Below are positions 9,487 to 35,052 of a stretch of DNA of 38,570 nt, one piece after another; the stretch's first letter is position 1, and every line of letters begins with the position of its first letter. A program made the position numbers and the translations under genes. This DNA comes from Oscillospiraceae bacterium (GTDB lineage Bacteria; Bacillota; Clostridia; Oscillospirales; Ruminococcaceae): positions 1 to 38,570 of the forward strand of contig JAGAJQ010000054.1 of the NCBI GenBank assembly GCA_017828955.1. Direction: 5' to 3'. Below the pieces are notes generated by a model. It had not been told where the DNA came from. It did no database searches and worked only from the letters and a program-made list of their open reading frames with translations.

Positions 9487-9536
9487 TTAAGCGTCGGAAA
9501 ACTCATCTTTTTACATATAGAAAGGGCGGATATTTT

Positions 9537-13334: not shown

Positions 13335-13368
13335 AATTCTGCGTCCTTTCGTTTATTTTATACTGGCA

Positions 13369-13662: not shown

Positions 13663-13683
13663 AAAAACATCTCCTTATATAAT

Positions 13684-14646: not shown

Positions 14647-14664
14647 TAAAATGTTCCACCTCCT

Positions 14665-15009: not shown

Positions 15010-15025
15010 TTTCTATCATCACCTC

Positions 15026-15415: not shown

Positions 15416-15458
15416 TGTCATCGCTCCTTTCTGTTCGTTTTCTATATTCTACATCAAA

Positions 15459-15630: not shown

Positions 15631-16542
15631 ATGCAGAAAAAATCAAAAATAATTATCATTTCGATAGTTTCGGCTATCCTTTTGATCGTCGGAGTTTTTA
15701 CCGCCATAGCGCTTACGGGCGCAGGGAATAATACAGAAAAAGTAACAACGGAAAAACTCTCTCTCGGACAGAAATTTCTTTTAGACCTCGAATATGACAA
15801 GGCTGTTGCGGAATTTCAGGCAGTTATTGATATCGAGCCTAAGAATGTTGACGCTTACATAGGCCTTGCGGATGCCTATATCGGAATGGGCGAAGAAGAA
15901 AAAGCCATTGAAACCCTCGAAAAAGGTCTTTCAGAGACAGGCGATGAAACTATCAGGGCGAAACTCGATGAGATGAAAAAGCCTGAGGAGACAACAGTGG
16001 AGGTTACTACAACACCCGAGGAGACGACAGCCAAAAAATCAGTCTGGCCGAGGAGGGAAGATCATAGCGATGGTTCTTATTCCATACTCGACCCCGATTC
16101 AAATGGAAATTTGATAATAAGTGATTACGAAGCTGACGGAACACTTTATCGTTATTCGATACACGAATACGATTACGATTCAAATGAGGAAAAAGTAAGT
16201 CGCTATAACCCCGATGGAACACTTAATAGTTATTCGATACACGAATACGATTCAAATGGGAATGAGATAAAAATGAGTTTTTACAACGGCGACGGAACAC
16301 TTGATGAGTATTGGATATCCGAATATGATTCAAATGGAAATAGGATAAAAGAAAGTTGGTACAACCCCGACGGAACACTTGATTATTACTCTATACACGA
16401 ATACGATTCAAATGGGAATGAGATAAAATCAAGTGATTACAACCCCGACGGAACACTTTTTTGTTATTCGATATCCGAATACGATTCAAATGGAAACAGG
16501 ATAAAAACAAGTCATTACTACCCCGACGGCACACCGATTTAA
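15631..16542 (+). CDS. Paralogue A: TM anchor + TPR module + Thr/Pro/Glu linker + YD-like repeats
   Basis: Start moved to MQKKSK (RBS AAAGGGGA), shared by all paralogues. TM helix IIIISIVSAILLIVGVFTAIALTG and TPR-like module KLSLGQKFLLDLEYDKAVAEFQAVIDIEPKNVDAYIGLADAYIGMGEEEKAIETLEKG. Five 26-aa repeats of the form EYDSNGNxIKxSxYNPDGTL. Confidence 0.85.
   Translation: MQKKSKIIIISIVSAILLIVGVFTAIALTGAGNNTEKVTTEKLSLGQKFLLDLEYDKAVAEFQAVIDIEPKNVDAYIGLADAYIGMGEEEKAIETLEKGLSETGDETIRAKLDEMKKPEETTVEVTTTPEETTAKKSVWPRREDHSDGSYSILDPDSNGNLIISDYEADGTLYRYSIHEYDYDSNEEKVSRYNPDGTLNSYSIHEYDSNGNEIKMSFYNGDGTLDEYWISEYDSNGNRIKESWYNPDGTLDYYSIHEYDSNGNEIKSSDYNPDGTLFCYSISEYDSNGNRIKTSHYYPDGTPI
16165..16539 (+). repeat. 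Intragenic tandem 78-bp (26-aa) repeats, about 5 units
   Basis: GAATA(C/T)GAT unit starts at 16165, 16243, 16321, 16399 and 16477, an exact 78-nt period. Confidence 0.85.
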
Positions 16543-16724: not shown

Positions 16725-16844
16725 TGTAACCAAATTGTAATAACTTTATGATAAACTGTAATCAATTTGTAATCGCATTGAAGTATAATGTATGGTATAA
16801 TCTGTAAAGGAGAAAAATTTTATTTTTTGGGGGAAGAAGAAAAA

Positions 16845-18994: not shown

Positions 18995-19741
18995 ATGAAA
19001 AAAACAGAAATTATAGTTATAGTAACAATAGTGGTTCTCGCAATAGCGGCGATTGTTGTAGGTATCTTCGCTTTTAAGGGAACGGAAGAAACATCTGCAC
19101 CCAAGGAAGATAAAATCGGGAATTTCTTCTCTGAACTTTTTGAGAAAAAGCCCGAAGATGAAGATGTTGACCCCATTGAACCCGTGGAAACAACAGAAGA
19201 ACCCGATGAAACAGAACCCGAACCCGAAGACGATGAACCTTATGGTGATATTGATGATTTCTTCGAATATGATGACAACGGAAATATAATAGAAGAAGAT
19301 TACGGTGATTATGTTTTAAGACACGAATATGATCACAAAAACCGTAAGATAAGAACTATCACATACGACGGAAAGGGCGATATCCAGTATTGGAGCGATT
19401 TTGAATACAAAGGCGACAGTGACAAGCCCTCAAGAAAAGAAACCAAAGATGCCAACGATGAACATATCTCAACAATTATATATGAATACGGAAGCGACGG
19501 TTCATATACCGAATCAAGCTATCTCCCCAATGGTATTCTTATGGATAAAACATATTTTGATAAATCGGGATTTATAGTAAGGGCAGAATATTATTATAAG
19601 AATTATATGGCTCAGCTTTATGAATTCGACCCCGAAACATACTGTGCAAAGCAGACTGATTATGACGAAGACGGAAATGTCATCTATTATGCCGAATACG
19701 ACGAAAACGGCGATCTTGTAAAAGAAGAAACATATGATTAA
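18995..19741 (+). CDS. TM-anchored protein: acidic Pro/Glu/Asp linker + YD-like repeats
   Basis: N-terminal TM helix IIVIVTIVVLAIAAIVVGIFAF. Repeats FEYDDNGNIIEE, YDEDGNVIYYAEYDENGDLVKEE. Confidence 0.8.
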   Translation: MKKTEIIVIVTIVVLAIAAIVVGIFAFKGTEETSAPKEDKIGNFFSELFEKKPEDEDVDPIEPVETTEEPDETEPEPEDDEPYGDIDDFFEYDDNGNIIEEDYGDYVLRHEYDHKNRKIRTITYDGKGDIQYWSDFEYKGDSDKPSRKETKDANDEHISTIIYEYGSDGSYTESSYLPNGILMDKTYFDKSGFIVRAEYYYKNYMAQLYEFDPETYCAKQTDYDEDGNVIYYAEYDENGDLVKEETYD

Positions 19742-20284: not shown

Positions 20285-21442
20285 ATGCAGAAAAAATCAA
20301 AAATAATCATAATTTCAATAGTTTCGGCAATTCTTTTAATTGTCGGAATTTTTACTGCCATAGCGCTGACGGGTGCGGATAATCCGACGCAGGCAGTTGC
20401 GACAGAAAAACTCTCTCTCGGACAGAAATTTCTTTTAGACCTCGAATACGACAAGGCCGTTGCGGAATTCACAGCAGTTATTGATATTGAGCCTAAGAAT
20501 GTTGACGCTTACATAGGCCTTGCTGATGCCTATATCGGAATGGGTGATGAAGAAAAAGCCATTGAAACCCTCGAAAAAGGTTTTATGGAAACAGGCGATG
20601 AAACTATCAGGGCGAAACTTGAAGAATTGAAAGCAACATTTAAAGGACCAAAAACAGAACGAACAGATTATAAAAATGGTTATTATCGTATAGATGAATA
20701 TGATTCAAACGGAAATTTGATAAAAAGGAGTTATTACGATACCAAAGGTGTTCTTGGAAATTATCGTATATATGAATATGATTCAAATGGAAATAAGATA
20801 AAAGAAAGTTGTTACAACAGAAATGAAACGACTTATTATACAAACGAATATGACTTGAATGGAAATTGTATAAAAATAAGTTACTACAAAATAAACGGGA
20901 TTCTTTGTTATATAGATGAGTATAATTTAAACGGAAAGTTGATAAAAAAGAGTTATTACAACGCCGATGGAACATATAGCTCGATACACGAATACGATTC
21001 AAACGGAATTTTGATAAAAAATAGTTATTACAACGCCGACGGAACGCTTGATTATATACTGGAATACGATTCAGACGGGAAATTGATAAGAGAAAACCAT
21101 TACAATGCCGACGGAATTTTTGATTGTATGCATGAATACGATTCGAAAGGTATTTTGATAAAAAGAAGTTGGTATAACCCCGATGGAACACTTATTGATT
21201 ATTACATATGCGAATGCAATTCAAATGGAAAATTGATAAAAGAAAACCATTACAATGCCGACGGGATTTTTGATTGTATATTGGAATACGATGTATATGG
21301 TAATGAAATAAAAAGAAGTTGGTATAACCCCGACGGAACGCTTATTGATTATTACACATACGAATACGATTCAGAGAGCCAACTTATAAAAGAAAATCAT
21401 TACGATGCCGACGGAACGCTTATCGAAGAATACACCTACTAA
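20285..21442 (+). CDS. Paralogue B: TM anchor + TPR module + YD-like repeats (no Thr-rich linker)
   Basis: The N-terminal ~110 aa is nearly identical to A, D and E. Junction KGPKTERTD, then about 11 repeats (EYDSNGNLIKRSYY, YNADGTLDYILEYDSDGKLIRENHY). Confidence 0.85.
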   Translation: MQKKSKIIIISIVSAILLIVGIFTAIALTGADNPTQAVATEKLSLGQKFLLDLEYDKAVAEFTAVIDIEPKNVDAYIGLADAYIGMGDEEKAIETLEKGFMETGDETIRAKLEELKATFKGPKTERTDYKNGYYRIDEYDSNGNLIKRSYYDTKGVLGNYRIYEYDSNGNKIKESCYNRNETTYYTNEYDLNGNCIKISYYKINGILCYIDEYNLNGKLIKKSYYNADGTYSSIHEYDSNGILIKNSYYNADGTLDYILEYDSDGKLIRENHYNADGIFDCMHEYDSKGILIKRSWYNPDGTLIDYYICECNSNGKLIKENHYNADGIFDCILEYDVYGNEIKRSWYNPDGTLIDYYTYEYDSESQLIKENHYDADGTLIEEYTY

Positions 21443-21460
21443 CCCAAGGAGGAAAATAAA

Positions 21461-22126
21461 ATGAAAACAAAAATCTTATGTTACATAATCGACGGAATAA
21501 TACTCATATCGCTTATTGCGGTATGGGTTTATGTTCTTTTAACAGAAATGCCCATGAAATCAATAATCGCGATAGCGCTTATCTCGCTTGTCCTCATAAT
21601 ACTCGGCGGAGTTGTTCTTTTTGTGGCGATGAGAAGTGAAAGCGGAGAAAAGTCTGTTAAAAAACAGGTTGAAGAAAAAGAAGAAGTTCCCGTTATCGAA
21701 AAGCCTGAACCTGTTACTAAAAACAACGACGATCCGGAAACTGATATTATGCTAAAAGAACCGACAACAGAGATCATACTTGACAAAGGGTCTGACAAAA
21801 CAGAAATCATTCCTCAGAAGAGAAGTTTTTATGTAAAACTTCAGGATAAGAACAACTCTGTAAAGACATATCAGACATATTTTGACACAGAGGCTATCAT
21901 CGGAAGACATGAAGGAAACTGCAATATTGTCCTTGCGGATGAAAAGAGCGTTTCAAGACGCCATTGCAGACTTTTTGTCGATAAGGACAGAATTATGGCG
22001 GAGGACTTAGGGTCTTCAAACAGAACTTATGTAAACGGAATTCAGGTTGAGGGACGTGCACTTGAAATAAAAAGCGGAGATGAACTCAGAATGGGCAGAG
22101 CGATATTTATTGTCACAATAAATTAA
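21461..22126 (+). CDS. Membrane-anchored FHA-domain protein
   Basis: Two N-terminal TM helices and an acidic linker containing TTEII and KTEII. The C-terminal FHA domain has canonical phosphothreonine-binding residues (IIGRHE, SVSRRH, SSNRTYVNG). Confidence 0.85.
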   Translation: MKTKILCYIIDGIILISLIAVWVYVLLTEMPMKSIIAIALISLVLIILGGVVLFVAMRSESGEKSVKKQVEEKEEVPVIEKPEPVTKNNDDPETDIMLKEPTTEIILDKGSDKTEIIPQKRSFYVKLQDKNNSVKTYQTYFDTEAIIGRHEGNCNIVLADEKSVSRRHCRLFVDKDRIMAEDLGSSNRTYVNGIQVEGRALEIKSGDELRMGRAIFIVTIN

Positions 22127-22139
22127 GGGAGAGAACTCT

Positions 22140-23624
22140 ATGAAATACTGTGAATATACAAATACAGGAATAATCCGAAGCGTCAATCAGGACAGCCTTC
22201 TTTCGCTCTCGATGAACGGCTCGGGGCTTTTTGTCGTTGCCGACGGAATGGGCGGACATATAGACGGAGAGATTGCCAGCAAGGCTGTTAAAAAGGCCTG
22301 TCAGAAATGGTGGAACACATCTTTTATGGAAAATTCAGATATGGATTTTCTTCTGGCGGTTGAAGAAATCAAGGCAGCGATTGAAATTGTCAACAAAAAT
22401 CTCATAAAGAAAATGGAAGGTACGGGAAAAATCTGCGGAACAACCGTTGCCGTTGTTTTCATTCATAACGGTGCTTATGCCGCTATGAATATAGGCGACA
22501 GCAGAATATATCTTTCGAATAAAAGAGGTGTGCGTAAAATTTCATTTGACCACACCTTGAATTCGTTTGAGGAGATAAAAAACACCGCTCTTTCTGAAAA
22601 GGATAAACTTACTCAGGCGATAGGTGTTAAAGAAGATCTCAGCTGGTACACGGCGACAGATACACTCAAAAACGACGAAAAATTCTTTATCTGCACAGAC
22701 GGTGTTTATAAATACACAGAAGAGGAAGACCTTTTTTCTGCAATAAAGAATTACTCAGAAGAGGAAGAGATAAAGAAGGAAATCGAAAAGCAGGTTATCT
22801 TAGGCGGTGCGCCTGATAACTTTTCTTTTATTGCAATAGATATGAGAAAAGAAAAAGCCTCGGTTTCAAGAAAGCCTCTTATCATCGTTTCGGCGATAGC
22901 GGTTGCACTTTTCGTTATATTCACAGTGATTTTTGCGGTTGCCGTTTCGGGAGATAAAGGAGAAAATATACAGACTGTTATGTCTGAAAAACTCTCCCTC
23001 GGTCAGAAATTTCTTTTAGACCTCGAATACGACAAGGCTGTTGCAGAATTCACAGCCGTTATTGATATCGAGCCTAAGAATGTCGACGCTTATATGGGGC
23101 TTGCTTCTGCTTATATCGGTATGGGTGAAAAGGATAAGGCTATTGAAACTCTCGAAAAGGGTCTTATGGAAACGGACGACGAAACTATCAGGGCAAAACT
23201 TATGGAACTCAAAACCCCCGAAGAAACAACAGCAGAGGTGACTACTACCCCCGAAGAAACAACCCCCGAGACTACAACAACCCCTGAGGAGACGACAACT
23301 GTTCCTGAAACGACAATGGTTGTAACTACACAAAAAGCAGCAACAATAAAAAAATTCGAATATGAAGATGAGGATATTATAAGTGAATTTGATTCAAATG
23401 GAAGAATAATAAAAAGAAGTATCTATAAGAAAGACGGAACACTTTTAGAATACGAAATATATGGATACGATTCATACGGGAATATGTCAGAAGGATATTT
23501 TTATAAAGCAGACGGAACACTTCTTCGTTATTTCAGAGAAAAATACGATGAGAACGGAAGGATTGTAGATGCGACTATTAAAGTTTTAGAAGGAACAGCA
23601 TCTCCAATGGGAATTGTGCAATAA
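22140..23624 (+). CDS. PP2C (PPM) Ser/Thr phosphatase fused via a TM helix to the paralogue TPR + linker + YD-like ectodomain
   Basis: PPM motifs NQDS, VVADGMGGH, GDSRIY and TDGV. TM helix LIIVSAIAVALFVIFTVIFAVAV. This is followed by KLSLGQKFLLDLEYDKAVAEFTAVIDIEPKNVDAYMGL, a TTTPEETT linker and FDSNGRIIKRSIY repeats. Confidence 0.85.
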   Translation: MKYCEYTNTGIIRSVNQDSLLSLSMNGSGLFVVADGMGGHIDGEIASKAVKKACQKWWNTSFMENSDMDFLLAVEEIKAAIEIVNKNLIKKMEGTGKICGTTVAVVFIHNGAYAAMNIGDSRIYLSNKRGVRKISFDHTLNSFEEIKNTALSEKDKLTQAIGVKEDLSWYTATDTLKNDEKFFICTDGVYKYTEEEDLFSAIKNYSEEEEIKKEIEKQVILGGAPDNFSFIAIDMRKEKASVSRKPLIIVSAIAVALFVIFTVIFAVAVSGDKGENIQTVMSEKLSLGQKFLLDLEYDKAVAEFTAVIDIEPKNVDAYMGLASAYIGMGEKDKAIETLEKGLMETDDETIRAKLMELKTPEETTAEVTTTPEETTPETTTTPEETTTVPETTMVVTTQKAATIKKFEYEDEDIISEFDSNGRIIKRSIYKKDGTLLEYEIYGYDSYGNMSEGYFYKADGTLLRYFREKYDENGRIVDATIKVLEGTASPMGIVQ

Positions 23625-23681
23625 TATCTGACAAAATATCCGAATCGGATAAAACCTACTAACCCACCATGGAGGAAGATT

Positions 23682-25898
23682 ATGTTTAAGCAAGGCGAAT
23701 TACTCAACGGAACATACAAGATAATCGAAAATATAGGCTCGGGCGGTGGCGGAGAAATCTATAAAGCCTATCATACACACCTCGATTGTTATGTTGCCGT
23801 TAAACTTATAAAGGATAACATCAAGGGAAAACTTGATGACAGGGCAGAAGCCGATATCCTCAAAAAAATAAAACATTCATATCTTCCTCAGGTTTATGAC
23901 TTTGTCATCACTGACGAGGGGGATGTCTATACGGTTATGGAATTCGTTGAGGGGATGTCTTTTTCAGAGCATCTCAAAAACGGAAAGACATTCACAAACG
24001 CACAGGTTATAAAATACGCAAAGCAGGCTTGTGAGGCACTTTCATACCTGCATACAAGAAAACCCGCTATTGTCCACAGTGATATCAAACCTGCGAATAT
24101 TATGCTTACTCCCGATGACAATATCTGCATAATAGACTTCAACATCTCGTCTGTACTCAGTGAAGGAGGAGCGTTTGCTGTCGGCAAAAGCGACGGATAT
24201 TCTCCCCCTGAGCAGTATGTAAAGAAGAACAAGACGGAAAAAGCAAAGACAGATAAAACATCAACAATAACAGAAACAGAAATCTTAGGCGAAACAGAAT
24301 TTGACAGTTTTGAAGAAGATACTTCGATAACAGTTACAACCATAACAGAAATCGAGGAGACAGAAGCTGTTACAGACATAGTAGGAGAAGAGAAAGAAGA
24401 AACTGATATCACTCCCGAAAAGAGCAGTAGTTTTGCCTCAAAGATGATAGTTTCAAAAGCGATTATTGATGAACGTTCAGATGTTTATGCCCTTGGCGCA
24501 ACACTTTATCATCTCATCAGCGGAAAAAGACCTGAAAAGTCGACAGATGGTGTTACTCCCATAAACAAACTCGATACAGAGGCAAGCTACGGACTTCGCT
24601 GTATCATTTCAAAGGCTATGGAAAATTCTCCGAAAAAGAGATATGCAAACGCAGGGGAGATGCTTATTGCCCTTGAAAATATTCACAGTATGGAAAAGCT
24701 ATATAAAAGCTTTACTTTAAGAAACCGCATAATCTATGCCCTTTTGATTTTGGGAACAGCCTTTTTCTCTGTTCTTGCCTTTATGGGATATAAGAGAATC
24801 GGAACAGAAAATGCCATGGCATATAAGGAGTATACAGAAAAGCTCGTCGTTTTAAGAGAAAAGGGCGACGAAAAGGGCTTTGAAGAAATCTATCAGAAGG
24901 CAGAGGCTATCTATAACGACAGACTCGATATCCATTTTCAGAAAGCACTCTTTCTTTTTGAAAAGGGTGAATATGATAACTGTCTTTCATATATGGATGA
25001 AATAATGAGAAATCATCCCGAATACACGGACGATGCCGAAATGGCGGACCTTTTATTCGTTCATGCAAACTGTTATTTTGAAAAAGAGGATTATTCTTCG
25101 GCTATCATAAAATACAAATCCGCGATAGATAAAAAATCGGATAACGGAGAATATTACCGCGACTATGCAATTTCTCTCGCGAGAACGGGCGAGCCGGACA
25201 AGGCTTCGGAAGTTCTGAAAAGGGCGACAGAACTCGGTCTTTCGGAAGAAAATATATGCCTCGTTGACGGCGAAATAGATTTTGTAAGAGGAAGATATGA
25301 AGAGGCTGAAAAATCGCTTTTGAAATGTATATCCGTTTCATCTGATGAATACATAAAACAGCGTGCGTATATTCTTATAAACAAGGTTTATTCAAAAACG
25401 GGCGAAACCGCAAAGAATACGGAAATTCTCGAAAAGGCTTTAAAGGAACTTCCCGAAGAAAGACTTTACAGCATATATGAGCTTCTTTCACAATGCTATC
25501 TTGATATGGGAAAAGAAACGGGTGAAAACGACTATTATCTCAAAGCCGTTGATATTTTTTCGGTTATGCAGAAAAAGGGTTTCGGCGGATACAGAGTTTC
25601 TGAAAATAAGGCTGTCGCTTATTATACAATAGGCGATTGCGAGTCGGCAAAGGCGGAACTGAATAAGATGAAAGAGGATTTCGGAGAAAATTATAGAACA
25701 GATATGTATCTCGCTTTCTGCGAACTTCGTGAAGAGTCTGAAAAAAGCAATAACAAGAGAGACTATTCGGATTTTCTCAAATATTACAATAACGCGAAAA
25801 GCCTTTATGAAAAAGAGGCAGAGGATGGTATGACCGATATGGAAATGCAGGTTCTCACGGACACATATCATCAGCTAAAAGAGGGCAACTGGTTTTAA
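23682..25898 (+). CDS. Membrane Hanks-type Ser/Thr protein kinase with C-terminal TPR-like domain
   Basis: G-loop GSGGGGEIYKA, VAVK lysine, catalytic loop HSDIKPANIML (non-RD), DFN and SPPE. A ~70-aa Thr/Glu-rich insert precedes SDVYALG. One TM helix (IIYALLILGTAFFSVLAFMGY), then ~370 aa of helical TPR-like repeats. Confidence 0.9.
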   Translation: MFKQGELLNGTYKIIENIGSGGGGEIYKAYHTHLDCYVAVKLIKDNIKGKLDDRAEADILKKIKHSYLPQVYDFVITDEGDVYTVMEFVEGMSFSEHLKNGKTFTNAQVIKYAKQACEALSYLHTRKPAIVHSDIKPANIMLTPDDNICIIDFNISSVLSEGGAFAVGKSDGYSPPEQYVKKNKTEKAKTDKTSTITETEILGETEFDSFEEDTSITVTTITEIEETEAVTDIVGEEKEETDITPEKSSSFASKMIVSKAIIDERSDVYALGATLYHLISGKRPEKSTDGVTPINKLDTEASYGLRCIISKAMENSPKKRYANAGEMLIALENIHSMEKLYKSFTLRNRIIYALLILGTAFFSVLAFMGYKRIGTENAMAYKEYTEKLVVLREKGDEKGFEEIYQKAEAIYNDRLDIHFQKALFLFEKGEYDNCLSYMDEIMRNHPEYTDDAEMADLLFVHANCYFEKEDYSSAIIKYKSAIDKKSDNGEYYRDYAISLARTGEPDKASEVLKRATELGLSEENICLVDGEIDFVRGRYEEAEKSLLKCISVSSDEYIKQRAYILINKVYSKTGETAKNTEILEKALKELPEERLYSIYELLSQCYLDMGKETGENDYYLKAVDIFSVMQKKGFGGYRVSENKAVAYYTIGDCESAKAELNKMKEDFGENYRTDMYLAFCELREESEKSNNKRDYSDFLKYYNNAKSLYEKEAEDGMTDMEMQVLTDTYHQLKEGNWF

Positions 25899-25910
25899 GG
25901 AGTTTTAGAT

Positions 25911-26066
25911 ATGATTGAATTTATAAAGAATCTTTCTGTCGGCGAGCTTATGTTCTATGGCGGAATTTCAGGCGCAGGGCTTTGCGTTATCGCGATGATA
26001 GTGGGAATTCCCCTTACAAACCTCGGCAAAAAGCAGGTTAAGAACAAAATAGACAAGGAGTATTAA
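25911..26066 (+). CDS. Small membrane protein (51 aa), absent from the ORF track
   Basis: RBS AAGGAG 8 nt upstream of the ATG. Sequence MIEFIKNLSVGELMFYGGISGAGLCVIAMIVGIPLTNLGKKQVKNKIDKEY has one TM helix and a basic tail. It exactly fills the gap between the kinase gene and paralogue D. Confidence 0.5.
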   Translation: MIEFIKNLSVGELMFYGGISGAGLCVIAMIVGIPLTNLGKKQVKNKIDKEY

Positions 26067-26069
26067 ACT

Positions 26070-27176
26070 ATGCAGAAGAAATCAAAAATAATTATCATTT
26101 CGATAGTTTCGGCTATCCTTTTGATCGTCGGAGTTTTTACTGCCATATCACTTACGGGTGCAGGAAATAATACAGAAAAAGTAACAACGGAAAAACTCTC
26201 TCTCGGGCAGAAATTTTTACTCGACCTTGAATACGACAAGGCCGTTGCGGAATTTCAGGCAGTTATTGATATCGAGCCTAAGAATGTTGACGCTTACATA
26301 GGGCTTGCGGATGCCTATATCGGAATGGGCGAAGAAGAAAAGGCAATAGAAACTCTCGAAAAAGGTTTTATGGAAACAGGCGATGAAACTATCAGGGCGA
26401 AACTCGATGAGATTAAAGAGGTTGAGGAGACGACAGCGGAGGTTACTACTACTCCCGAGGTGACGACAACTCCGCCTGAAACGACAACAGAGGAGGTAAC
26501 GACAACACCTGAGGTTACGACTACTCCCGAGGTTACTACAACACCCGAGGTGACAACAACTGAGGAAATAACTACAACTCCCGAGGTTACTACAACCCTA
26601 AAAGGTCCGAGAACGGAGAGGGTAGATTTTGATGACGGAAGTTATCTGATTCACGAATATGACAAAGATGGTCAGTGTTTAAAAGAAACAGTATATTATT
26701 CAAATGGCGAATCCTATGGAGAAGCCACTAACGGCTTAACTGGTTGGTGGAATAATAAGAAAAATGAAACAGTTGAATACCGGTTTATTCATTTTAATAA
26801 ATGGATACGCGAGTTTGATTCAAATGGAAATATGATAAAAGTAAGTTATTACAACGCCGACGGAACGCTTAGTTATTACTATATAAACGAATACGATTCA
26901 AATGGAAATAGGATAAAAGAAAGTAGTTACAACGGCGACGGAACACTTATAGTTATATTAGAATACGATTCAAATGGAAATAGGATAAAAGACAGTTGGT
27001 ACCACTCCGACGGAACACTTTATAATTACTCTATACACGAATACGATTCAAATGGAAATAGGATAAAAGAAAGTTGGTACACCCCCGACGGAACACTTTA
27101 TTTGATATCCGAATACGATTCAAATGGAAATAGGATAAAAGAAAGTTGGTACAACCCCGACGGAACACCGATGTAA
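26070..27176 (+). CDS. Paralogue D: TM anchor + TPR module + long PEVTTT linker + YD-like repeats
   Basis: The N-terminal module is by eye about 90% identical in nucleotides to paralogue A. Junction KGPRTERVD, then repeats EYDSNGNRIKESWY. Confidence 0.85.
   Translation: MQKKSKIIIISIVSAILLIVGVFTAISLTGAGNNTEKVTTEKLSLGQKFLLDLEYDKAVAEFQAVIDIEPKNVDAYIGLADAYIGMGEEEKAIETLEKGFMETGDETIRAKLDEIKEVEETTAEVTTTPEVTTTPPETTTEEVTTTPEVTTTPEVTTTPEVTTTEEITTTPEVTTTLKGPRTERVDFDDGSYLIHEYDKDGQCLKETVYYSNGESYGEATNGLTGWWNNKKNETVEYRFIHFNKWIREFDSNGNMIKVSYYNADGTLSYYYINEYDSNGNRIKESSYNGDGTLIVILEYDSNGNRIKDSWYHSDGTLYNYSIHEYDSNGNRIKESWYTPDGTLYLISEYDSNGNRIKESWYNPDGTPM
26421..26598 (+). repeat. Thr/Pro/Glu/Val low-complexity tandem repeat (PEVTTT units)
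   Basis: EVTTTPEVTTTPPETTTEEVTTTPEVTTTPEVTTTPEVTTTEEITTTPEVTTT, encoded by degenerate 18-nt units. Confidence 0.8.
26811..27173 (+). repeat. Intragenic tandem 72/78-bp repeats, about 5 units
   Basis: Unit starts at 26811, 26889, 26961, 27039 and 27111. The string GAATACGATTCAAATGGAAATAGGATAAAAGA recurs four times, at the last four unit starts. Confidence 0.85.
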
Positions 27177-27202
27177 AAATCCCCGAAAGGACTTGAAAAA
27201 TT

Positions 27203-30200
27203 ATGGCATATATATTTTATTTCAACTTCAAAGAAAATGTTTATGAATACCCGTTGCCTGCTGTCAACAACAGGGTCATAAGCATTGATATATCTGAATT
27301 CTCATCGGAAAAAGGCGTTATAAATCTTGAAATCTTTGACGGCGTATGGAAACTCCTCCCCTCAGAAGATTTCAACTTCTCAGTGAACAACTCAATAATA
27401 ACAGAGAAGAAAATCGAAGACGGCGACAAAATCACAGCGAAGAAAAAACGCGGGGAACTCACCTTTATGATTTTTGCGCTCAAAGCCTCTGAAAACACAA
27501 GCGTATACAGAAAATGGTCGCTCGAAGGGGTAAACAGGGTTACTGTCGGTATGGATGAAAACTGCGATATCGTTTATAAAGAACAGTTTGTCAGCCATAA
27601 ACACGCAACTATCGAAAGAAAAGGCTCGGGCTTTTTCCTTACAGACAATTCAACAAACGGAACATTTTTAAATGGCTCGAAAATATCGGGCGAAACCCCT
27701 CTTTCTATCTTTGACACAATATACATACTGGGTCTTAAAATAATCTTTTTAGGCGAATATATAGCAACAAACAAGATTTTGGAACTCGGCGTTTCGCTTA
27801 CTGAAATATGCGATATAAACAATGATTATGAGCCTTATGAGGATGAATCCGACTTTTCTCGTTCACCGAGAAGAATAGAGCCTCTCGATGAAGAAGTAAT
27901 TGAGATAGAATCCCCTCCCTCACAGCATAAGGCTTCGAGTCAGCCTCTTATTTTCATAATAGGCCCTTCGGTAACAATGCCACTGCCGATTATGATTTCT
28001 GTCATCATAAATATGATGTCATCGGGCAACACATCAAATCCGCTTATGTATTTAGGAACGGTAATTTCCGTTGTATGTTCGGGATTCATAGGCGCGGGTT
28101 GGGCACTCGCACATCAGTTTTATAACAAGAAGACAGTTAAAAAACAGGAAGAAGCAAGAGTAAAGGCATATGGCGAATATATTGCCAAAAACGAAAATCT
28201 TCTCTCTGAAAAACAGGATAAGAACAAGCGTATTATAGATGAACAGTTTTTATCCTCAGATAAACTTATGAAAAAGGTTTTCAAGGATAAGACTTTTTTA
28301 TGGAACAGAAATATAAACCACGCCGATTTCTCGAAAATCCGTTTCGGAACAGGCTCTGTAAAACTTCCTAACGGAATATCTGTTCCCAAGGAAAGATTTT
28401 CTATGAATGACGACACCCTTGCCGACAAGCCGAGAGAGCTTTTCGACCGTTACAACACAATGGAAGACTGCGCATATACCGCAAGACTCAACGACAGCAA
28501 GATATGGGGCGTTATCGGTGAATATAAGAATGTTATGAATATCGTCAATAACATCGCCGTTCAGCTTTCGGCGCTCCATAGTTATAGCGATATCAAGATA
28601 GCGATTCTCTGTAAAGAAAACGAAAAGGAAAAATATCTCTGGATGAAGTGGCTTCCTCATATATTCTCATCCGACAGAAAAGTAAGAATGTTCGGATGCG
28701 ACAGCAACTCTGTAAAGAATGTATGCAATTTCCTCGGCGGAGAACTCCGTTCAAGAGAGGAGAATGCAGAGGGTGCATTATCAAGGGATTTAAGATTTCT
28801 CCCTCATTATTTCGTTATCTGCACAGACAAGTCCATCCTTGAAAAGAACAGTCTTTCAAAATACATAATGAATAATTCCGAGCTCGGTTTTACATTCATT
28901 CTTGCATACGAAAAGATGGACAAACTCCCCAATGAATGTAAGGTCATCATACAGCATGACGAAACATACAGCGGAATATATTCGCTTTCATCAACTATCG
29001 ACGAAACAAACTCTGTAAATTTCGATAACGTTGATGTAAAATACGCAGAAAAATATGCAAGAGCAATAAGCGGACTTTATCTTACAGAATTCACACAGGG
29101 CGAAATCCCCGCTTCTATCGATTATCTCGATATGCTCGGCATAGGAAAATTCGAACAATGGAACCTTATCAGAAAATACAAGGAAAACCGTTCTTATGAA
29201 AGTCTTGCTTCGTTTATAGGAATAGGAACAGGTAACCGCCCCGTTGTTCTTGATATCAGCGAAAAGATGCATGGTCCTCATGGTCTTATTGCGGGAACAA
29301 CAGGCTCGGGTAAGAGTGAAACAATACAGACATTTATTCTTTCGCTTATTTTAAATTACAGCCCCGATGAAGTTGCGTTTATCCTTATTGACTATAAGGG
29401 TGGAGGAATGGCAGCCGCTTTTGAAGGAATACCTCACCTTGCGGGAATTATCACAAACCTCGGCGGAGATACAGGCGAGGGTGAGATTGACGAAAACCTT
29501 ACAAGACGTGCACTTATCTCGATAAAGAGTGAAATAAAGAGAAGACAGCAGATTTTCAACCGCTATAAAGTAAACCATATAAACCAGTATATAAAGATGT
29601 ACAGAGGCGGTGCTGTCAGCGAAGCATTACCCCATTTGATTATTATATCGGACGAATTTGCAGAACTTAAACACAAACAGCCTGAATTCATCAAAGAACT
29701 TGTCAGCGTTGCCAGAGTAGGAAGAAGCCTCGGCGTTCATCTTATACTTGCAACACAGAAACCTTCGGGGGTTGTCGATGAAGAAATCTGGAGTAACTCA
29801 CGTTTCAAAATCTGTCTTAAAGTTCAGGACAAGCAGGACAGTATAGGAATGCTCAAACGCCCCGAGGCAGCATATCTTGTCAATACGGGACGCGCTTATA
29901 TGCAGATAGGAAACGATGAGATTTTTGATATGTTCCAGTCGGGATATTCGGGTGCTGAATATATGCCGACAGATGAATTTGTTTCTTCAAAGGATAAGGA
30001 AGTCATTATGATTGATATCGACGGAACATATCTTGAAGAAAACACAATGACAGGAAAAGGAAATCAGACAGGTATCTCACAGCTTAAAGCGGGTATTGAT
30101 TATGTAATAAATGTTTCGGCAATGAGTGGTTTCAAACCGACAAGAAAACTTTGGAATGAATGTCTGCCTTCGCTTATCGGTCTTGATAAACTTGATGTTT

Positions 30201-31798
30201 CGGGCATTGATTTTAAAAGCGGGCTCATCTCCTGCTATGGTATCATTGATAACCCTGAAAAACAGTCACAGTATCCTGCTGTCGTTGATGTTTCAAAGAC
30301 ATCTCATATACTTGTTTCAGGTATGTCAGGCTCAGGAAAATCAACATTCTTACAGACAATGGTATATTCTCTTGTTTCAAGATATACTCCCGATGAAATA
30401 CAGTTCTACTTCATAGATTTTTCAAGCAGAACAACAAGAAAATTTGAAAAGCTTCCTCATTGCGGAGGAGTTGTTTTCCAGGAACACAACGAACTCATAG
30501 AAAGACTTTTCAGACTTCTTGAAAACGAATGTGATGAAAGAAGAAGAATTTTCGATAAGGCAGATGCGGGAAGTTTCGGTGAATATACAAAGAAGAATAA
30601 AATGCCTATGATACTTGTTGTAATCGACAATTATGCAGGTTTTTCAGAAGGGTATCCCGAACTTGCAGAAAAACTCGCAGGGTTTTCAAGAGACTGCCTT
30701 AAATACGGCATCCAGCTTGTTATTTCAGCGAATAATACAAACGATGTGAAATACAAGACAATGCAGAATATCGGATATAAAATCGCACTCCGCCTTTCAG
30801 ACCGTTATGGATATAACGAAATACTCGGTGGTGCGCCCGAATTCACACCTTCAAAATATGCAGGCCGTGGTCTTGTAAAAGAAGACGGTATTTTAGAATT
30901 CCAGACAGCTGTTCCGTTTGAAATCGAAGATGAAACAGAACGTTCTGAAAAGATGATAAAGGAATTTTCAGATATCGCAAAGAAATACAAGAAACACACT
31001 CCCGCAAAGAGAATTCCGTCTATCCCCAGGGATGAAATATATGCTGATTTCTATGAAAAGAATAAGGCGGATGGTATGATTCCTTTAGGATACGATACAA
31101 ACGATATCTCACCTCTTTCTCTTTCGAGACGTGATACATTCTGTCTTGCTGTCGGTGCTTCTGAAGAAAAGAGTATATCGCTTATGTTCAGTAACTTCAC
31201 TTACTGTGCGAAACAGTCGGGCGCTGTTGTATGGTATTTTAAAACATCGACAGATATGCTCTGTAAACCTGAATATGTCGACAGGGTTTATACAAAGACA
31301 AAAATCGAAGATTTTCTTAAAGCCTTGCAGAAAGAGTTTGAAACTGCATCTGAAATAAGAGGGAAATATAAGGATTCTATGAGTGTAAACGAGATGGAAA
31401 CAAAGGTTGTCGAAGAAAAGAAGATGCTCTATATCTTTATTGATAATATGGCAGAATTTTGTAAGATAATATATAATCCCAAAAATGAATATCCGCTTAA
31501 TAATATTGTTGAGGAGACATTCAGATATGGCGAAAAGAGAGGGGTAACCTTTATAGTTGGCTTCGGAACTGATAGCTATATCGACGCTATACACAGCACA
31601 GCCTGCAGGAATTTCCTCTTTAATAAGACAATTCTTCATATCGGCGGACATCTTGATCAGCAGAAACTTTATTCTTCATCATTGCCTTATAATATCCAGA
31701 ACAGACCTCTTGATTTACAGACAGGCTATTTCTTCAACGGAACAACCGAAAGACAGATATTCATACCATTGTCCGAACGAGGTGAAAACGATGCTTGA
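27203..31798 (+). CDS. essC: T7SS FtsK/SpoIIIE-family ATPase EssC (N-terminal FHA region, 2 TM helices, 3 ATPase domains)
   Basis: FHA-like segment VTVGMDENCDIVYKEQFVSHKHATIE...STNGTFLNG and two TM helices. D1 has GTTGSGKSE and IIISDEFAEL. D2 has GMSGSGKST and VVIDNYA. D3 has the degenerate P-loop GASEEKS. The 1531-aa length is typical of EssC/YukB. Confidence 0.9.
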   Translation: MAYIFYFNFKENVYEYPLPAVNNRVISIDISEFSSEKGVINLEIFDGVWKLLPSEDFNFSVNNSIITEKKIEDGDKITAKKKRGELTFMIFALKASENTSVYRKWSLEGVNRVTVGMDENCDIVYKEQFVSHKHATIERKGSGFFLTDNSTNGTFLNGSKISGETPLSIFDTIYILGLKIIFLGEYIATNKILELGVSLTEICDINNDYEPYEDESDFSRSPRRIEPLDEEVIEIESPPSQHKASSQPLIFIIGPSVTMPLPIMISVIINMMSSGNTSNPLMYLGTVISVVCSGFIGAGWALAHQFYNKKTVKKQEEARVKAYGEYIAKNENLLSEKQDKNKRIIDEQFLSSDKLMKKVFKDKTFLWNRNINHADFSKIRFGTGSVKLPNGISVPKERFSMNDDTLADKPRELFDRYNTMEDCAYTARLNDSKIWGVIGEYKNVMNIVNNIAVQLSALHSYSDIKIAILCKENEKEKYLWMKWLPHIFSSDRKVRMFGCDSNSVKNVCNFLGGELRSREENAEGALSRDLRFLPHYFVICTDKSILEKNSLSKYIMNNSELGFTFILAYEKMDKLPNECKVIIQHDETYSGIYSLSSTIDETNSVNFDNVDVKYAEKYARAISGLYLTEFTQGEIPASIDYLDMLGIGKFEQWNLIRKYKENRSYESLASFIGIGTGNRPVVLDISEKMHGPHGLIAGTTGSGKSETIQTFILSLILNYSPDEVAFILIDYKGGGMAAAFEGIPHLAGIITNLGGDTGEGEIDENLTRRALISIKSEIKRRQQIFNRYKVNHINQYIKMYRGGAVSEALPHLIIISDEFAELKHKQPEFIKELVSVARVGRSLGVHLILATQKPSGVVDEEIWSNSRFKICLKVQDKQDSIGMLKRPEAAYLVNTGRAYMQIGNDEIFDMFQSGYSGAEYMPTDEFVSSKDKEVIMIDIDGTYLEENTMTGKGNQTGISQLKAGIDYVINVSAMSGFKPTRKLWNECLPSLIGLDKLDVSGIDFKSGLISCYGIIDNPEKQSQYPAVVDVSKTSHILVSGMSGSGKSTFLQTMVYSLVSRYTPDEIQFYFIDFSSRTTRKFEKLPHCGGVVFQEHNELIERLFRLLENECDERRRIFDKADAGSFGEYTKKNKMPMILVVIDNYAGFSEGYPELAEKLAGFSRDCLKYGIQLVISANNTNDVKYKTMQNIGYKIALRLSDRYGYNEILGGAPEFTPSKYAGRGLVKEDGILEFQTAVPFEIEDETERSEKMIKEFSDIAKKYKKHTPAKRIPSIPRDEIYADFYEKNKADGMIPLGYDTNDISPLSLSRRDTFCLAVGASEEKSISLMFSNFTYCAKQSGAVVWYFKTSTDMLCKPEYVDRVYTKTKIEDFLKALQKEFETASEIRGKYKDSMSVNEMETKVVEEKKMLYIFIDNMAEFCKIIYNPKNEYPLNNIVEETFRYGEKRGVTFIVGFGTDSYIDAIHSTACRNFLFNKTILHIGGHLDQQKLYSSSLPYNIQNRPLDLQTGYFFNGTTERQIFIPLSERGENDA

Positions 31799-32522: not shown

Positions 32523-32534
32523 GAGGAAATTTAT

Positions 32535-32806: not shown

Positions 32807-33652
32807 ATGCAGAAAAAATCAAAAATAATCATAATTTCGGTAGTTTCGGCAATTCTTTTAGTTGTAGGAGTTTTTACCGCCATAGCACTCACAGGTAAGG
32901 GAAACAGCATTGAAAAAGAGGTCGGCGAAAAGCTCTCTCTCGGGCAGAAATTCTTGCTTGACCTCGAATACGACAAGGCCGTTGCGGAATTTCAGGCAGT
33001 TATTGATATCGAGCCTAAGAATGTTGACGCTTATATAGGCCTTGCTGATGCCTATATCGGCATGGGCGAAGAAGAAAAGGCAATAGAAACCCTCGAAAAA
33101 GGTTTTATGGAGACAGGCGATGAAAAGATTCAGGCGAAACTCGAAGAGATGAAAACCCCCGAAGAAACAACCGCAGAGGTAACCACAACACCCGAGGAGA
33201 CGACAACTGTTCCTGAAACTACAACAACAGTTGCGACGACAGCCAAAAAATCAGGCTGGACAGAGAGGAAAGATTATAGCGATGGTTCTTATCGGATAAT
33301 CGAATACGATTCGGACGGGCATATGATAAAATCAAGTTATTACAACGCTGACGGAACGCTTAATTATTACTATATAAACGAATACGATTCAAAAGGAATT
33401 TTGATAAAAAATAGTTTTTACAATGCCGACGGCATACTTGATTGCTATTATACTTATGAATATTATTCCTATCCTGGCAAATACAAAAAAGCATATAAAT
33501 ATCTTCCTGACGGAACACTTGACAGTTATTCTTTATTTGAATATTATGAATCCGGTTACATCAAAAAACAGACATGGTATTACCAATCGGGTGGCGAAGG
33601 CTGGCATGATTGGGAAGACGGAGAAGCCATGTGGGCTCATGCGATTTGGTAA
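32807..33652 (+). CDS. Paralogue E: TM anchor + TPR module + Thr-rich linker + YD-like repeats
   Basis: Same MQKKSKIIIIS start and TPR module. Repeats EYDSDGHMIKSSYYNADGTL. The divergent Trp-rich C-terminus is WYYQSGGEGWHDWEDGEAMWAHAIW. Confidence 0.85.
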   Translation: MQKKSKIIIISVVSAILLVVGVFTAIALTGKGNSIEKEVGEKLSLGQKFLLDLEYDKAVAEFQAVIDIEPKNVDAYIGLADAYIGMGEEEKAIETLEKGFMETGDEKIQAKLEEMKTPEETTAEVTTTPEETTTVPETTTTVATTAKKSGWTERKDYSDGSYRIIEYDSDGHMIKSSYYNADGTLNYYYINEYDSKGILIKNSFYNADGILDCYYTYEYYSYPGKYKKAYKYLPDGTLDSYSLFEYYESGYIKKQTWYYQSGGEGWHDWEDGEAMWAHAIW

Positions 33653-35048: not shown

Positions 35049-35052
35049 TTTA

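Follow-up and report, generated by a model that had tools for sequence, protein, structure and literature searches.

The window analysed here, the whole stretch of 38,570 nucleotides from an Oscillospiraceae bacterium (contig JAGAJQ010000054.1), contains a gene for a PP2C phosphatase whose product, beyond a transmembrane (TM) helix, carries a TPR-linker-repeat tail like those of a family of surface proteins encoded around it. The first-pass annotation of this DNA regarded the tail as a domain-level copy of the paralogue ectodomain, and proposed that the phosphatase senses, or competes for, the same external ligand or partner as the paralogues. The question raised by this locus is which parts of the tail are common to the phosphatase and the paralogues, and what such a tail may do on a phosphatase.

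The phosphatase and its locus

The open reading frame of the phosphatase is uninterrupted and encodes 494 amino acid residues, and a Shine-Dalgarno sequence, AAGGGAGAG, was found 5' of its start codon. The catalytic domain was matched by Pfam PP2C_2 (PF13672; residues 14-213, 52.9 bits against a cutoff of 24) and PF00481 (35.6 bits against a cutoff of 20.3), and the NCBIfam Stp1-type PPM model covered residues 7-233 (model positions 2-231 of 232, E = 1.2e-39). The PPM motifs are complete (RxxNQD at residue 13, here RSVNQD; DGMGG at 35; GTT at 100; GDSR at 119; TDGV at 186; DNFS at 226), and the metal-binding and catalytic motifs (RxxxD, DGxGG, GDSR, DG and DN) are unchanged across six orthologues. 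The Stp1/IreP equivalog model NF033484 was matched over its full length at 136.3 bits, below its cutoff of 230 bits, indicating the fold and class of Stp1/IreP, yet no Stp1/IreP orthologue. Named homologues in GenBank are MBE6838982.1 (Ruminococcus sp.) and MGN0653713.1 (Oscillospiraceae bacterium).

The TM segment has a Kyte-Doolittle peak of 3.12, with a K/R-rich inner flank (MRKEKASVSRK) and an acidic outer flank. The phosphatase has no N-terminal signal peptide, and its single TM helix is followed by a folded C-terminal part of 224 residues. The sequence KPLIIVSAIA in the helix is kept among the PP2C orthologues, unlike the anchors of the paralogues. The receptor-type (PstP-like) layout is a prediction from hydropathy, flank charges, the missing signal peptide and the modelled C-terminal fold; together with the paralogue-like order of anchor and TPR, these features agree with the first-pass annotation, which had placed the TPR-repeat part outside the cell. 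Its order of PPM domain, TM helix, TPR, linker and repeats was likewise borne out by the intact reading frame, the Pfam and NCBIfam matches, hydropathy and AlphaFold2. Judging from the sequence, positions 22140..23624 encode an intact PPM/PP2C Ser/Thr phosphatase of predicted bitopic topology (Table 1). We also considered a separate paralogue-like protein starting at the internal Met235, and rejected it: the sequence upstream of this codon was found to lack a Shine-Dalgarno sequence, and two orthologues (P0005 and P0006) do not conserve the Met.

Table 1. Features of the phosphatase gene and its neighbours, in positions of the window
Feature	Position	Strand	Evidence
Paralogue, anchor-TPR-linker-repeats	15631..16542	+	
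Paralogue, anchor-TPR-DUF2963 repeats, directly 5' of the FHA gene	20285..21442	+	DUF2963 137 bits
FHA protein, two TM segments, 221 aa	21461..22126	+	Pfam FHA 65 bits; TM segments
Whole gene, PPM/PP2C phosphatase-TM helix-TPR-linker-beta-hairpin repeats	22140..23624	+	Intact ORF; Pfam and NCBIfam matches
PPM catalytic domain, predicted cytoplasmic, aa 7-233	22158..22838	+	NCBIfam Stp1_PP2C match; motifs
Single TM helix, predicted N-in/C-out, aa ~246-270	22875..22949	+	Hydropathy; flank charges
75-aa TPR handle common to the paralogues, aa 283-357	22986..23210	+	Identity to four paralogues; TPR_19
Thr/Pro/Glu-rich disordered linker, aa ~362-397	23223..23330	+	pLDDT <50; sequence TTTPEETTPETTTTPEETTTVPETT
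Strain-variable cassette: linker end, repeats, stop codon, 3' remnant	23317..23653	+	Synteny break against L004
~3.5 beta-hairpin repeats (DUF2963/YD-like), aa ~402-482	23343..23585	+	AlphaFold2; weak DUF2963 and DUF3836 matches; Foldseek
Hanks-type Ser/Thr kinase-TM-TPR-rich ectodomain	23682..25898	+	Pkinase 131.7 bits; TPR_12/TPR_19; TM aa 348-371
51-aa single-TM protein	25911..26066	+	ORF
Paralogue directly 5' of EssC	26070..27176	+	DUF2963 101 bits; TPR_19
EssC-type T7SS ATPase, N-terminal FHA domain	27203..31798	+	T7_EssCb_Firm; FHA
YukD/EsaB-like protein, 85 aa	32535..32792	+	PF08817 YukD positions 2-76 of 76, E 0.035 (weak)
Paralogue after the YukD-like gene	32807..33652	+	

The phosphatase gene lies in a tightly packed gene string that belongs to a variant type VII secretion system (T7SS) with a kinase/phosphatase/FHA threonine-phosphorylation module. 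The EssC protein scored 1066.7 bits with the NCBIfam model T7_EssCb_Firm (cutoff 778.4) and 56 bits with FHA; WXG100 genes and a WXG-CHAP effector gene lie near the gene string, and a LytTR gene lies within it. The phosphatase is thus clustered with an EssC-type ATPase, WXG100 proteins, a Hanks kinase and an FHA protein, the company that marks a T7SS-associated PPM phosphatase (TsxF). The standalone FHA protein had its best match with the FhaB/FipA model, and no DUF6382 match was found in its 221 residues. The FHA domain of EssC reads GM where the phosphate-binding motif has GR, so that EssC may not read phosphothreonine. Neither a match to the YukC domain nor, among the ORFs, a large Ig-like TsxI/TsjI protein was found in the window.

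The gene order paralogue-FHA-PP2C-Ser/Thr kinase-51-aa TM protein-paralogue-EssC-LytTR-YukD-like-paralogue is repeated on some 40 contigs, which represent three lineages (L001-3, L004-6, L091 and L092; 21, 18 and further contigs from ENA, JGI, NCBI and Logan), all of them assemblies of uncultured metagenomes. In all syntenic loci the FHA gene is directly 5' of the phosphatase gene, the position of the YukD-like gene is conserved, and the 51-aa gene occupies the equivalent site in L001, L004-6 and L091. Orthologues with the full architecture of the phosphatase are P0002-P0006. This distribution bears on the assembly or frameshift artefact of two adjacent genes that the first-pass annotation named as a refutation; PP2C and paralogue genes could have been joined by misassembly over a repeat or by a sequencing frameshift. 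The locus is rich in near-identical repeats and the present allele has a frameshift-like truncation at its 3' end, as such an error would predict, but assemblies made independently, drawn from several sources and three lineages, show the same fused reading frame and synteny (55-100% identity), and the junction (TM and juxtamembrane segment) is orthologue-specific and conserved. Moreover, between the TPR copy and any one paralogue 14-21% of nucleotides differ, mostly at synonymous sites, and the copy is therefore not a collapsed repeat. We regard an artefact as scarcely credible, and as refuted for the fusion itself.

Farther relatives, at 35-42% identity, have a TM helix followed by a short TPR-like or other tail and adjoin FHA and/or kinase genes. 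T7SS markers (EssC, WXG100 or DUF4176) accompany three of them (P0023, P0016 and P0146), while P0030, on a 12-kb contig free of such markers, has kinase and FHA neighbours. P0135 and P0146 (35-37% identity) still have a short TPR-like segment, and in some distant relatives the TM helix is followed by unrelated tails of low complexity, either acidic or rich in Thr. The survey of PPM architectures among relatives, which the first-pass annotation had recommended, has thus found the fusion to recur, with a TM helix and a predicted outside tail in the distant T7SS relatives. In the literature on DUF2963 and on T7SS in Ruminococcus, we found nothing on the architecture of the phosphatase.

A TPR handle evolving in concert with the paralogues

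The surface proteins of this locus form a family in which a 75-aa TPR handle is joined to a Thr/Pro/Glu linker and a variable head. On the phosphatase, the handle was matched by TPR_19 (42.1 bits against 25) and TPR_8 (26.3 bits against 25.7), and it is 85-89% identical in amino acids and 79-86% in nucleotides to the handles of the four TM-TPR paralogues (starting at 15631, 20285, 26070 and 32807), a likeness that the sequences place far above chance. AlphaFold2 modelled the segment as four helices (pLDDT ~90), which superpose on consensus TPR designs in Foldseek with an rmsd of 2.1-2.3 Å over 73 residues. The TPR-rich ectodomain of the adjacent kinase was considered as a further copy of the handle and rejected, its BLASTP match having an E-value of only 0.018 over 34 residues.

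In a neighbor-joining (NJ) bootstrap analysis, the TPR modules grouped by genome in 999 of 1000 replicates and by orthology in 1, and the grouping held at third codon positions. Identity at third positions was 56-68% to paralogues of the same genome vs 43% to the orthologue. The closest relative of the phosphatase module is that of paralogue 20285 (86% nucleotide identity, NJ sister). The phosphatase-type signature AYMGLASAY also occurs on paralogues elsewhere (P0007 and P0009), and orthologous heads ride on genome-specific handles (P0021 vs P0025). With dN/dS of the module at 0.06-0.10, these patterns argue that the handle is held near-identical to the paralogues of its own genome by gene conversion together with purifying selection. 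We think independent fusions in each lineage a less likely alternative to gene conversion: orthologues conserve both the TM and juxtamembrane segment and the place of the gene, and only the TPR groups by genome. The locus is thus a clean natural case of concerted evolution confined to one module of a multidomain gene.

Near-identity maintained by conversion and purifying selection fits one partner common to the TPR modules. Gene conversion alone could hold the modules alike without a common function, but a dN/dS near 0.1 points to constraint. The same evidence bears on the possibility that only membrane anchoring near the kinase and EssC has been selected, with a tail that has no signalling or docking role and is kept uniform by gene conversion with similar sequences at a distance of 2-3 kb. 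Gene conversion at synonymous sites, a head that is replaceable and, in the present allele, truncated (see below), and the unrelated acidic or Thr-rich tails of distant relatives are all as expected of a passive tether. Strong purifying selection on the TPR is not, nor is its retention in all three lineages, with a TPR-like segment even in P0135 and P0146, nor the folded head of 100-240 residues in every orthologue; we consider a passive tether rather improbable.

The exchangeable head and the proposed role of the tail

Beyond the handle, the resemblance to the paralogues is weaker. The TTTPEETT linker of the phosphatase resembles the paralogue linkers in kind (repeat family D7), and the repeats of the phosphatase are in register with those of the paralogues (repeat family D3), at only about 60-70% nucleotide identity. 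The head was modelled by AlphaFold2 as seven beta-strands, or about 3.5 hairpins, with pLDDT ~90. The repeats scored 19.1 bits with DUF2963 (PF11178; E = 8.5e-4), under the gathering threshold of 22.6, and the RHS_repeat profile (PF05593) found no match in the phosphatase and a borderline one in paralogue 20285 (22.3 bits against 22). Foldseek matched the hairpins with the Rhs shells of Tse5, teneurin and Tc toxins (E = 1.8e-4 to 2e-3), and placed them equally on the single-layer beta-sheets of TarM/SdgB and OspA. In these models the repeats are YD-like in fold only, and 3.5 hairpins are too few for a closed Rhs shell.

The head also differs between strains. Synteny with L004 runs at 93.6% identity to position 23316, breaks, and resumes at 96.9% from 23654; between alleles whose first 357 residues match at 99-100%, the C-terminal part is 35-41% identical. 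The distal repeat cassette has evidently been exchanged between strains that have a 99-100% identical PP2C-TM-TPR body. As a donor for the head cassette of the present allele, the best match within the window reaches only 62-70% nucleotide identity. The last repeat of this allele is cut off by a frameshift or deletion, and the ancestral ...NGN...TY* end is legible in another frame at about 23585-23660. A short and 3'-truncated head suggests that the head is dispensable, at least in the present allele. Among the paralogues, the one next to EssC likewise has a conserved position and a C-terminal head that differs between genomes (a beta-propeller in L091), and the heads include unrelated folds (besides this beta-propeller, an alpha/beta domain in P0021/P0025).

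Of the first-pass description, the near-copy of the ectodomain therefore stands for the TPR and not for the distal repeats, and the 'three or four YD-like repeats' stand as about 3.5 modelled hairpins with Foldseek matches, without an RHS_repeat match and with DUF2963 below its cutoff. A ligand or partner in common with the paralogues fits the TPR module; the repeats differ from those of the paralogues and are replaced between otherwise 99-100% identical strains, so that the 'same ligand' holds at most for the TPR.

The reading that we favour, tentatively and with somewhat less than even confidence, is that of an off-switch phosphatase of the T7SS, docked by the shared TPR handle and bearing a strain-variable head at its tip. 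The catalytic domain would face the cytoplasm and would remove the Thr phosphates that the adjacent kinase places on targets recognised by the FHA protein and perhaps by EssC, thereby switching off T7SS assembly or firing. The handle would serve for docking, by binding a partner that all family members share; this partner might be the family members themselves, mutually, the TPR ectodomain of the kinase or an envelope part of the T7SS. Such docking would hold the phosphatase at the envelope assembly of the paralogues, with the strain-variable beta-hairpin head touching the wall or the exterior.

A true sensor, whose ectodomain binds, or competes for, the external ligand of the paralogues and thereby switches phosphatase activity, is conceivable but unlikely; dephosphorylation would then be under direct control of the cell surface. 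The ectodomain is that of the paralogue family, with a handle 85-89% identical; a folded head is kept by orthologues in every lineage; the adjacent kinase is likewise of receptor type; and it is the phosphatase that has the variable heads, the kinase ectodomain being conserved from strain to strain (96.9% nucleotide identity). Set against these points are the repeats, which are unlike those of the paralogues (~60-70% of nucleotides) and vary among strains (35-41% of amino acids), making one common ligand unlikely except via the TPR, and the truncation of the head in the present allele. In addition, we know of no way in which a single-pass PPM phosphatase would relay the occupancy of its ectodomain, PstP (PMC3052367) being a precedent for the architecture only.

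A bolder proposal, which we hold to be quite doubtful, is that the phosphatase and not the kinase is the variable receptor of a T7SS firing switch: its strain-specific head would recognise a surface cue, namely a neighbour cell, a wall fragment or an incoming effector, and by its shared handle it would change places with the paralogues on the envelope complex of kinase and T7SS. Ligand binding or displacement would then lift the off-switch, so that contact-dependent secretion starts with a specificity at the level of strains, and gene conversion would keep the handles fit for one docking site while the heads diversify. Very improbable, in our judgement, is a decoy or immunity sensor, in which the paralogues would serve at the surface in immunity to, or recognition of, T7SS effectors that act on the wall, such as the CHAP toxin of this locus, and the phosphatase would bear one such head, so as to detect an incoming effector or a neighbour and release firing in a tit-for-tat response. 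The many polymorphic surface-anchored paralogues around a T7SS with a WXG-CHAP effector, the strain-specific cassettes and weak matches to MORN_2, a repeat type of the YwqK immunity family, are in keeping with such a role. The paralogues, however, do not adjoin the CHAP gene and their heads include unrelated folds; the proposal is purely analogical, and the pairing of effector and immunity protein is unsupported.

Comparison with known systems

In PstP of Mycobacterium tuberculosis, a cytoplasmic PPM domain of about 237 residues is linked through a juxtamembrane segment and a single TM helix to about 190 residues of extracellular domain (PMC3052367). With this precedent, and with a TM helix and predicted outside tail in other T7SS relatives, the first-pass view that extracellular sensor domains are uncommon on bacterial PP2C phosphatases was overstated. 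Common to both are the order of cytoplasmic PPM domain, TM helix and extracellular part, for the phosphatase here as predicted, and a gene beside those for FHA proteins and receptor-type Hanks kinases (fhaA-fhaB-pstP-...-pknA-pknB). On the other hand, the ectodomains are unrelated, and actinobacterial PstP-like proteins are about 29% identical to the phosphatase over the catalytic domain only, which leaves orthology to PstP unsupported. PstP acts in cell-wall growth and division, and not with a secretion system. We know of no paralogue family with its ectodomain and of no cassette exchange.

How a Gram-positive T7SS decides to fire is, to our knowledge, largely unknown. In the H1-T6SS of Pseudomonas aeruginosa, a receptor kinase (PpkA), a PP2C phosphatase (PppA) and an FHA reader (Fha1) gate contact-dependent firing of secretion; PppA is soluble and cytoplasmic, and the surface is sensed via the kinase and TagQRST, not via the phosphatase. 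The kinase-PP2C-FHA gating logic is alike in the two cases, although the secretion system and the phylum are different. An Agrobacterium analogue of the T6SS threonine-phosphorylation pathway is cited in a survey of variant T7SS loci (PMC11217815).

The heads recall the DUF2963 'Scorpion' proteins of phytoplasmas, in which repeats of about 26 residues form stacked beta-hairpins and the repeat number varies among paralogues (bioRxiv 10.1101/2025.07.14.664665), and the paralogues in the window match DUF2963 at 101-137 bits. The 'Scorpion' proteins, with their alpha-helical tails, are effectors that Mollicutes secrete, whereas the heads here are borne on membrane-anchored TPR handles in a T7SS of Clostridia. 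The EssB/YukC pseudokinase of T7SSb, a bitopic component with a cytoplasmic signalling-type domain, a TM helix and an extracellular domain, interacts with the FHA domains of EssC (PMC11217815); the comparison suits the neighbouring active kinase, not the phosphatase.

Close parallels are found in the variant T7SS loci, which according to the same survey often contain kinases, PPM phosphatases and FHA proteins (Garrett, Higginson & Palmer 2024, PMC11217815). As in the loci with TsxF (T7SSc/e/f/j) treated there, a PPM phosphatase is encoded here with a membrane Hanks kinase, an FHA protein, EssC, WXG100 and a YukD-like protein. In T7SSj, the kinase has a TPR ectodomain and there is a small single-TM component (PMC11217815); the kinase here, with its TPR ectodomain, is like TsjD, and a small single-TM protein is present in both. 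Differences from the TsxF loci are the absence of a large Ig-like TsxI from the window and an FHA protein that is short and without DUF6382. The authors of the survey describe TscF as cytoplasmic and list TseF and TsfF as 'ND' for TM helices (PMC11217815). Compared with TscF, TseF and TsfF, soluble by that account, the phosphatase here is predicted to be membrane-anchored, with a 224-aa ectodomain.

Kinase, phosphatase and FHA genes have been noticed only recently in variant T7SS loci, and the phosphatase here is receptor-like, unlike the soluble TscF, TseF and TsfF. It also has a docking-type TPR in common with polymorphic surface proteins interleaved among core T7SS genes. If the handle docks all members at one site, three matters become testable: the coupling of the cell surface to T7SS phosphoregulation, the reason for the many surface paralogues, and the role of the ectodomain of bitopic PPM phosphatases, that of PstP included.

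Architecture and recurrence of the phosphatase

The phosphatase gene has a good ribosome-binding site (AAGGGAGAG), 13 nt past the stop of the upstream FHA gene. Residues 7-233 of the protein were assigned to PPM/PP2C by profile (PF13672, 52.9 bits; cutoff 24). The Stp1-type model of NCBIfam was matched from end to end (E = 1.2e-39), with a score below its equivalog cutoff. The catalytic motifs (RSVNQD, DGMGG, GTT, GDSR, TDGV and DNFS) are complete. A single strongly hydrophobic helix at about residues 246-270, with a K/R-rich N-flank (MRKEKASVSRK) and an acidic C-flank, is followed by the TPR stretch named in the first-pass annotation (residues 283-357; TPR_19, 42 bits; hereafter the handle), then a Thr/Pro/Glu linker, and finally short repeats that match DUF2963 weakly (the head). 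The predicted topology is N-in/C-out. An AlphaFold2 model of residues 272-494, based on an alignment of 26 family members, shows a disordered linker between four TPR helices and seven beta-strands, with pLDDT of about 90 in both helices and strands. In Foldseek searches, the helices matched consensus TPR designs (rmsd about 2.2 Å) and the strands matched Rhs/teneurin YD shells and single-layer beta-sheets (TarM/SdgB, OspA). The reading frame, profile matches, motifs and model bear out the architecture first proposed, and the description of the repeats as 'YD-like' holds for the fold but not for Pfam membership.

Among 5.8 billion proteins searched for homologues, five further clusters combine PP2C, TM helix, TPR and repeats: P0002 (80% identity to the window protein, 18 contigs), P0003 (78%), P0004 (75%), P0005 (63%; Ruminococcus sp., GenBank MBE6838982.1, 21 contigs) and P0006 (55%; Oscillospiraceae, MGN0653713.1). 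The conserved order on the contigs is HTH (minus strand), paralogue, 2TM-FHA, PP2C, kinase-TM-TPR, 51-aa TM protein, paralogue, EssC, LytTR, 85-aa protein and paralogue. This recurrence with one gene order excludes an artefactual fusion, and the fusion to a paralogue-type ectodomain, as originally claimed, is real and conserved. The GenBank names of such proteins go no further than 'tetratricopeptide repeat protein' or 'PP2C domain-containing protein'. An exhaustive HMMER scan with residues 1-360 against 1.84 billion 50%-identity representatives yielded one representative for the phosphatase clade and two shorter distant proteins, P0135 and P0146 (35-37% identity), matching across PP2C, TM helix and a TPR-like segment; P0146 is flanked by vWA-FHA and kinase genes. 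The phosphatase is a real, conserved, bitopic PPM within a T7SS kinase/FHA module.

Homogenised handles and exchanged heads

The four paralogues of the window, surface proteins each with a signal anchor (MQKKSKIII...), the same TPR module, a linker of the same kind and DUF2963 repeats, form the family to which the phosphatase ectodomain belongs. Over 75 codons, the phosphatase TPR has 85-89% amino acid and 79-86% nucleotide identity to theirs, with 19-26 synonymous and 8-11 non-synonymous codon changes; it is a diverged copy under selection rather than a collapsed repeat. The downstream repeats have only about 60-70% nucleotide identity.

We compared the five handles of the window with the four of L001, a locus from another species whose PP2C catalytic domain is 73% identical in amino acids. 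Third-codon-position identity of the PP2C TPR to own-genome paralogues was 56-68% in the window and 60-68% in L001, whereas that between the two PP2C orthologues was 43%. In NJ trees, from all sites and from third positions alone, all TPR copies split by genome in 999 of 1000 bootstraps, and the two phosphatase copies came together in 1 of 1000; four residues were genome-diagnostic across all copies and one was phosphatase-diagnostic. The phosphatase-type signature AYMGLASAY is present in some paralogues of related assemblies (P0007, P0009), and P0021 and P0025 carry orthologous non-repeat heads on genome-specific handles. The tree, signatures and head/handle combinations indicate that the phosphatase TPR evolves together with the paralogue handles as part of one exchanging pool, with handles homogenised within each genome. 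The converted tract begins past the membrane, since the TM helix and the adjoining juxtamembrane stretch (KPLIIVSAIA...) are specific to the orthologues. The tail might alternatively be a passive tether with hitch-hiking gene conversion, but the low dN/dS of the TPR copies (0.06-0.11 throughout) and the retention of a TPR deep in the phylogeny argue against this.

The window and the related contig L004 come from the same species: their flanks are 94-97% identical in nucleotides, and the two contigs are almost equally long. Their alignment reaches 23316, breaks and restarts at 23654. Over residues 1-357, identity among the window protein, P0002 and P0003 is 99-100%; beyond these residues it is 35-41%. 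The kinase gene is conserved between the two strains. P0003, P0004 and P0005 have a common head (49-57% identity), probably the ancestral form. The shortest head is that of the window; a frameshift or deletion has truncated its last repeat, and the ancestral last repeat with its TY* end (...NGNCAIISDKISESDKTY*) is readable in another frame just 3' of the stop. The paralogue upstream of EssC is also variable, with repeat-number variants (449 vs 475 aa) and, in L091, a beta-propeller head. The phosphatase head is a swappable cassette, exchanged on a handle that is homogenised and constrained. The earlier proposal of the same ligand for phosphatase and paralogues can apply to the handle only, not to the exchanged head. 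We suggest that the handle would be a common docking module, bringing the phosphatase into the envelope assembly that the paralogues occupy; by analogy, the ectodomain could alternatively be an immunity or decoy sensor.

The paralogues have conserved N-terminal TM-TPR handles and highly diverse C-terminal heads (DUF2963 arrays that vary in length, a beta-propeller, an unknown alpha/beta domain; P0021/P0025 and the table give examples). The handle-bearing proteins are a polymorphic surface-protein family interleaved with core T7SS genes. Further YD-like/DUF2963-type repeat proteins are without the handle: two with lipoprotein-type signal peptides (…TGC, …LTAC), one TM-anchored and one small. 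The 75-aa TPR unit (…NVDAYxGLADAYxGxGDxxKAI…) is a widespread building block, since large membrane-anchored proteins of 700-2100 aa (P0127 and many matches of the HMMER scan) contain 6-14 copies of it in tandem; in P0127, the only one examined over its whole length, the sequence C-terminal to the copies is non-repeat.

The type VII secretion locus

A variant type VII secretion locus that includes a Thr-phosphorylation module occupies 11609-33652 of the window (core 20285-32792). The core comprises 2TM-FHA, PPM, a Hanks kinase with a TPR ectodomain, a 51-aa TM protein, EssC (1066.7 bits against a curated T7SS cutoff of 778.4), a LytTR-only protein and a YukD-like protein (85 aa; match full-length but weak), with WXG100 genes nearby. 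The kinase motifs are intact (Gly-loop, VAVK, HSDIKPAN, DFN). The standalone FHA protein keeps its GR, SRRH and N motifs, whereas the FHA domain of EssC (residues ~106-175) keeps SxxH and NG and has GM in place of the phosphate-binding GR, likewise in L001; the phospho-Thr reader may be the standalone protein rather than EssC. The phosphatase would be the off-switch for kinase-made phospho-Thr marks that the FHA protein would read.

The LytTR-only protein, which has no receiver domain, overlaps or abuts the EssC end in all related loci, distant ones included, and could be a component or a regulator conserved in this kind of T7SS. The AgrC-like kinase/LytTR pair may regulate the locus in a quorum-type manner. 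A putative T7SS effector operon (13011-15421, minus strand) is made up of a WXG-CHAP fusion and three WXG100-like genes.

Features of the window and of related loci
Feature	Position	Strand	Remark
Handle-less repeat protein	5355-5822	-	155 aa, far upstream
CotH kinase, DUF4956, VTC-domain trio	6010-9133	-	polyphosphate-related cluster
dCache-HAMP methyl-accepting chemotaxis protein	9477-11534		adjoins trio
442-aa ORF	11609-12937	-	no annotation obtainable; adjoins effector operon
WXG100	13011-13334	-	
WXG-CHAP fusion	13684-14646	-	WXG100-like N-terminus, peptidoglycan hydrolase
Two small WXG-like proteins	14665-15009, 15026-15421	-	
Paralogues	15631-16542, 20285-21442, 26070-27176, 32807-33652		diverse heads
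Handle-less repeat proteins	16788-18173, 18185-18973, 18995-19741		
Standalone FHA protein	21461-22126		
Phosphatase	22140-23624	+	494 aa, no interruption
Truncated last repeat	23585-23660		
EssC	27203-31798		
LytTR-only protein	31791-32522		L001 20077-20808; L087 3000-3704; L089 1804-2499
AgrC-like GHKL histidine kinase (multi-TM N-terminus), LytTR response regulator, BTAD-domain regulator	33708-35760, 35849-37060	-	kinase and response regulator immediately past last paralogue, then BTAD-domain regulator
Head-diversity example, L091	15767-17122		

Comparison with known systems

In more distant phosphatase homologues (P0016, P0023 and P0030; 37-42% identity), there is likewise a TM helix, and the tail behind it is acidic, Thr-rich or helical. 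The loci of P0016 and P0023 are of the EssC/LytTR/WXG100/vWA-FHA kind, and the P0023 contig carries kinase genes as well. P0030 adjoins a kinase, a vWA-FHA protein and an FHA-ABC protein; no T7SS marker was found on its 12-kb contig. Because these homologues share the TM helix and such neighbours, membrane anchoring is common to the whole branch of kinase/FHA-linked PPMs, mostly T7SS-associated.

Receptor-type PPMs are known; PstP has a catalytic domain of 237 aa and, besides its TM helix, an ectodomain of 191 aa (PMC3052367). PPMs linked to T7SS are already known as well (PMC11217815). In the literature searched, no published description was found of a membrane-anchored T7SS PPM whose ectodomain comes from a polymorphic surface family encoded in the locus, nor was one found of module-restricted concerted evolution or strain-level head exchange in such a PPM. 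Garrett, Higginson and Palmer describe T7SSc-j, with kinases, PPM phosphatases and FHA proteins as recurring components; TscF is described as cytoplasmic, and TseF and TsfF are tabulated without a TM helix (PMC11217815). Their T7SSj has a TPR-ectodomain kinase and a small single-TM protein (PMC11217815). The window locus resembles the T7SSj of Garrett et al. 2024 (PMC11217815), but differs from it in being without a large Ig-like TsxI and in its short FHA protein, which is without DUF6382.
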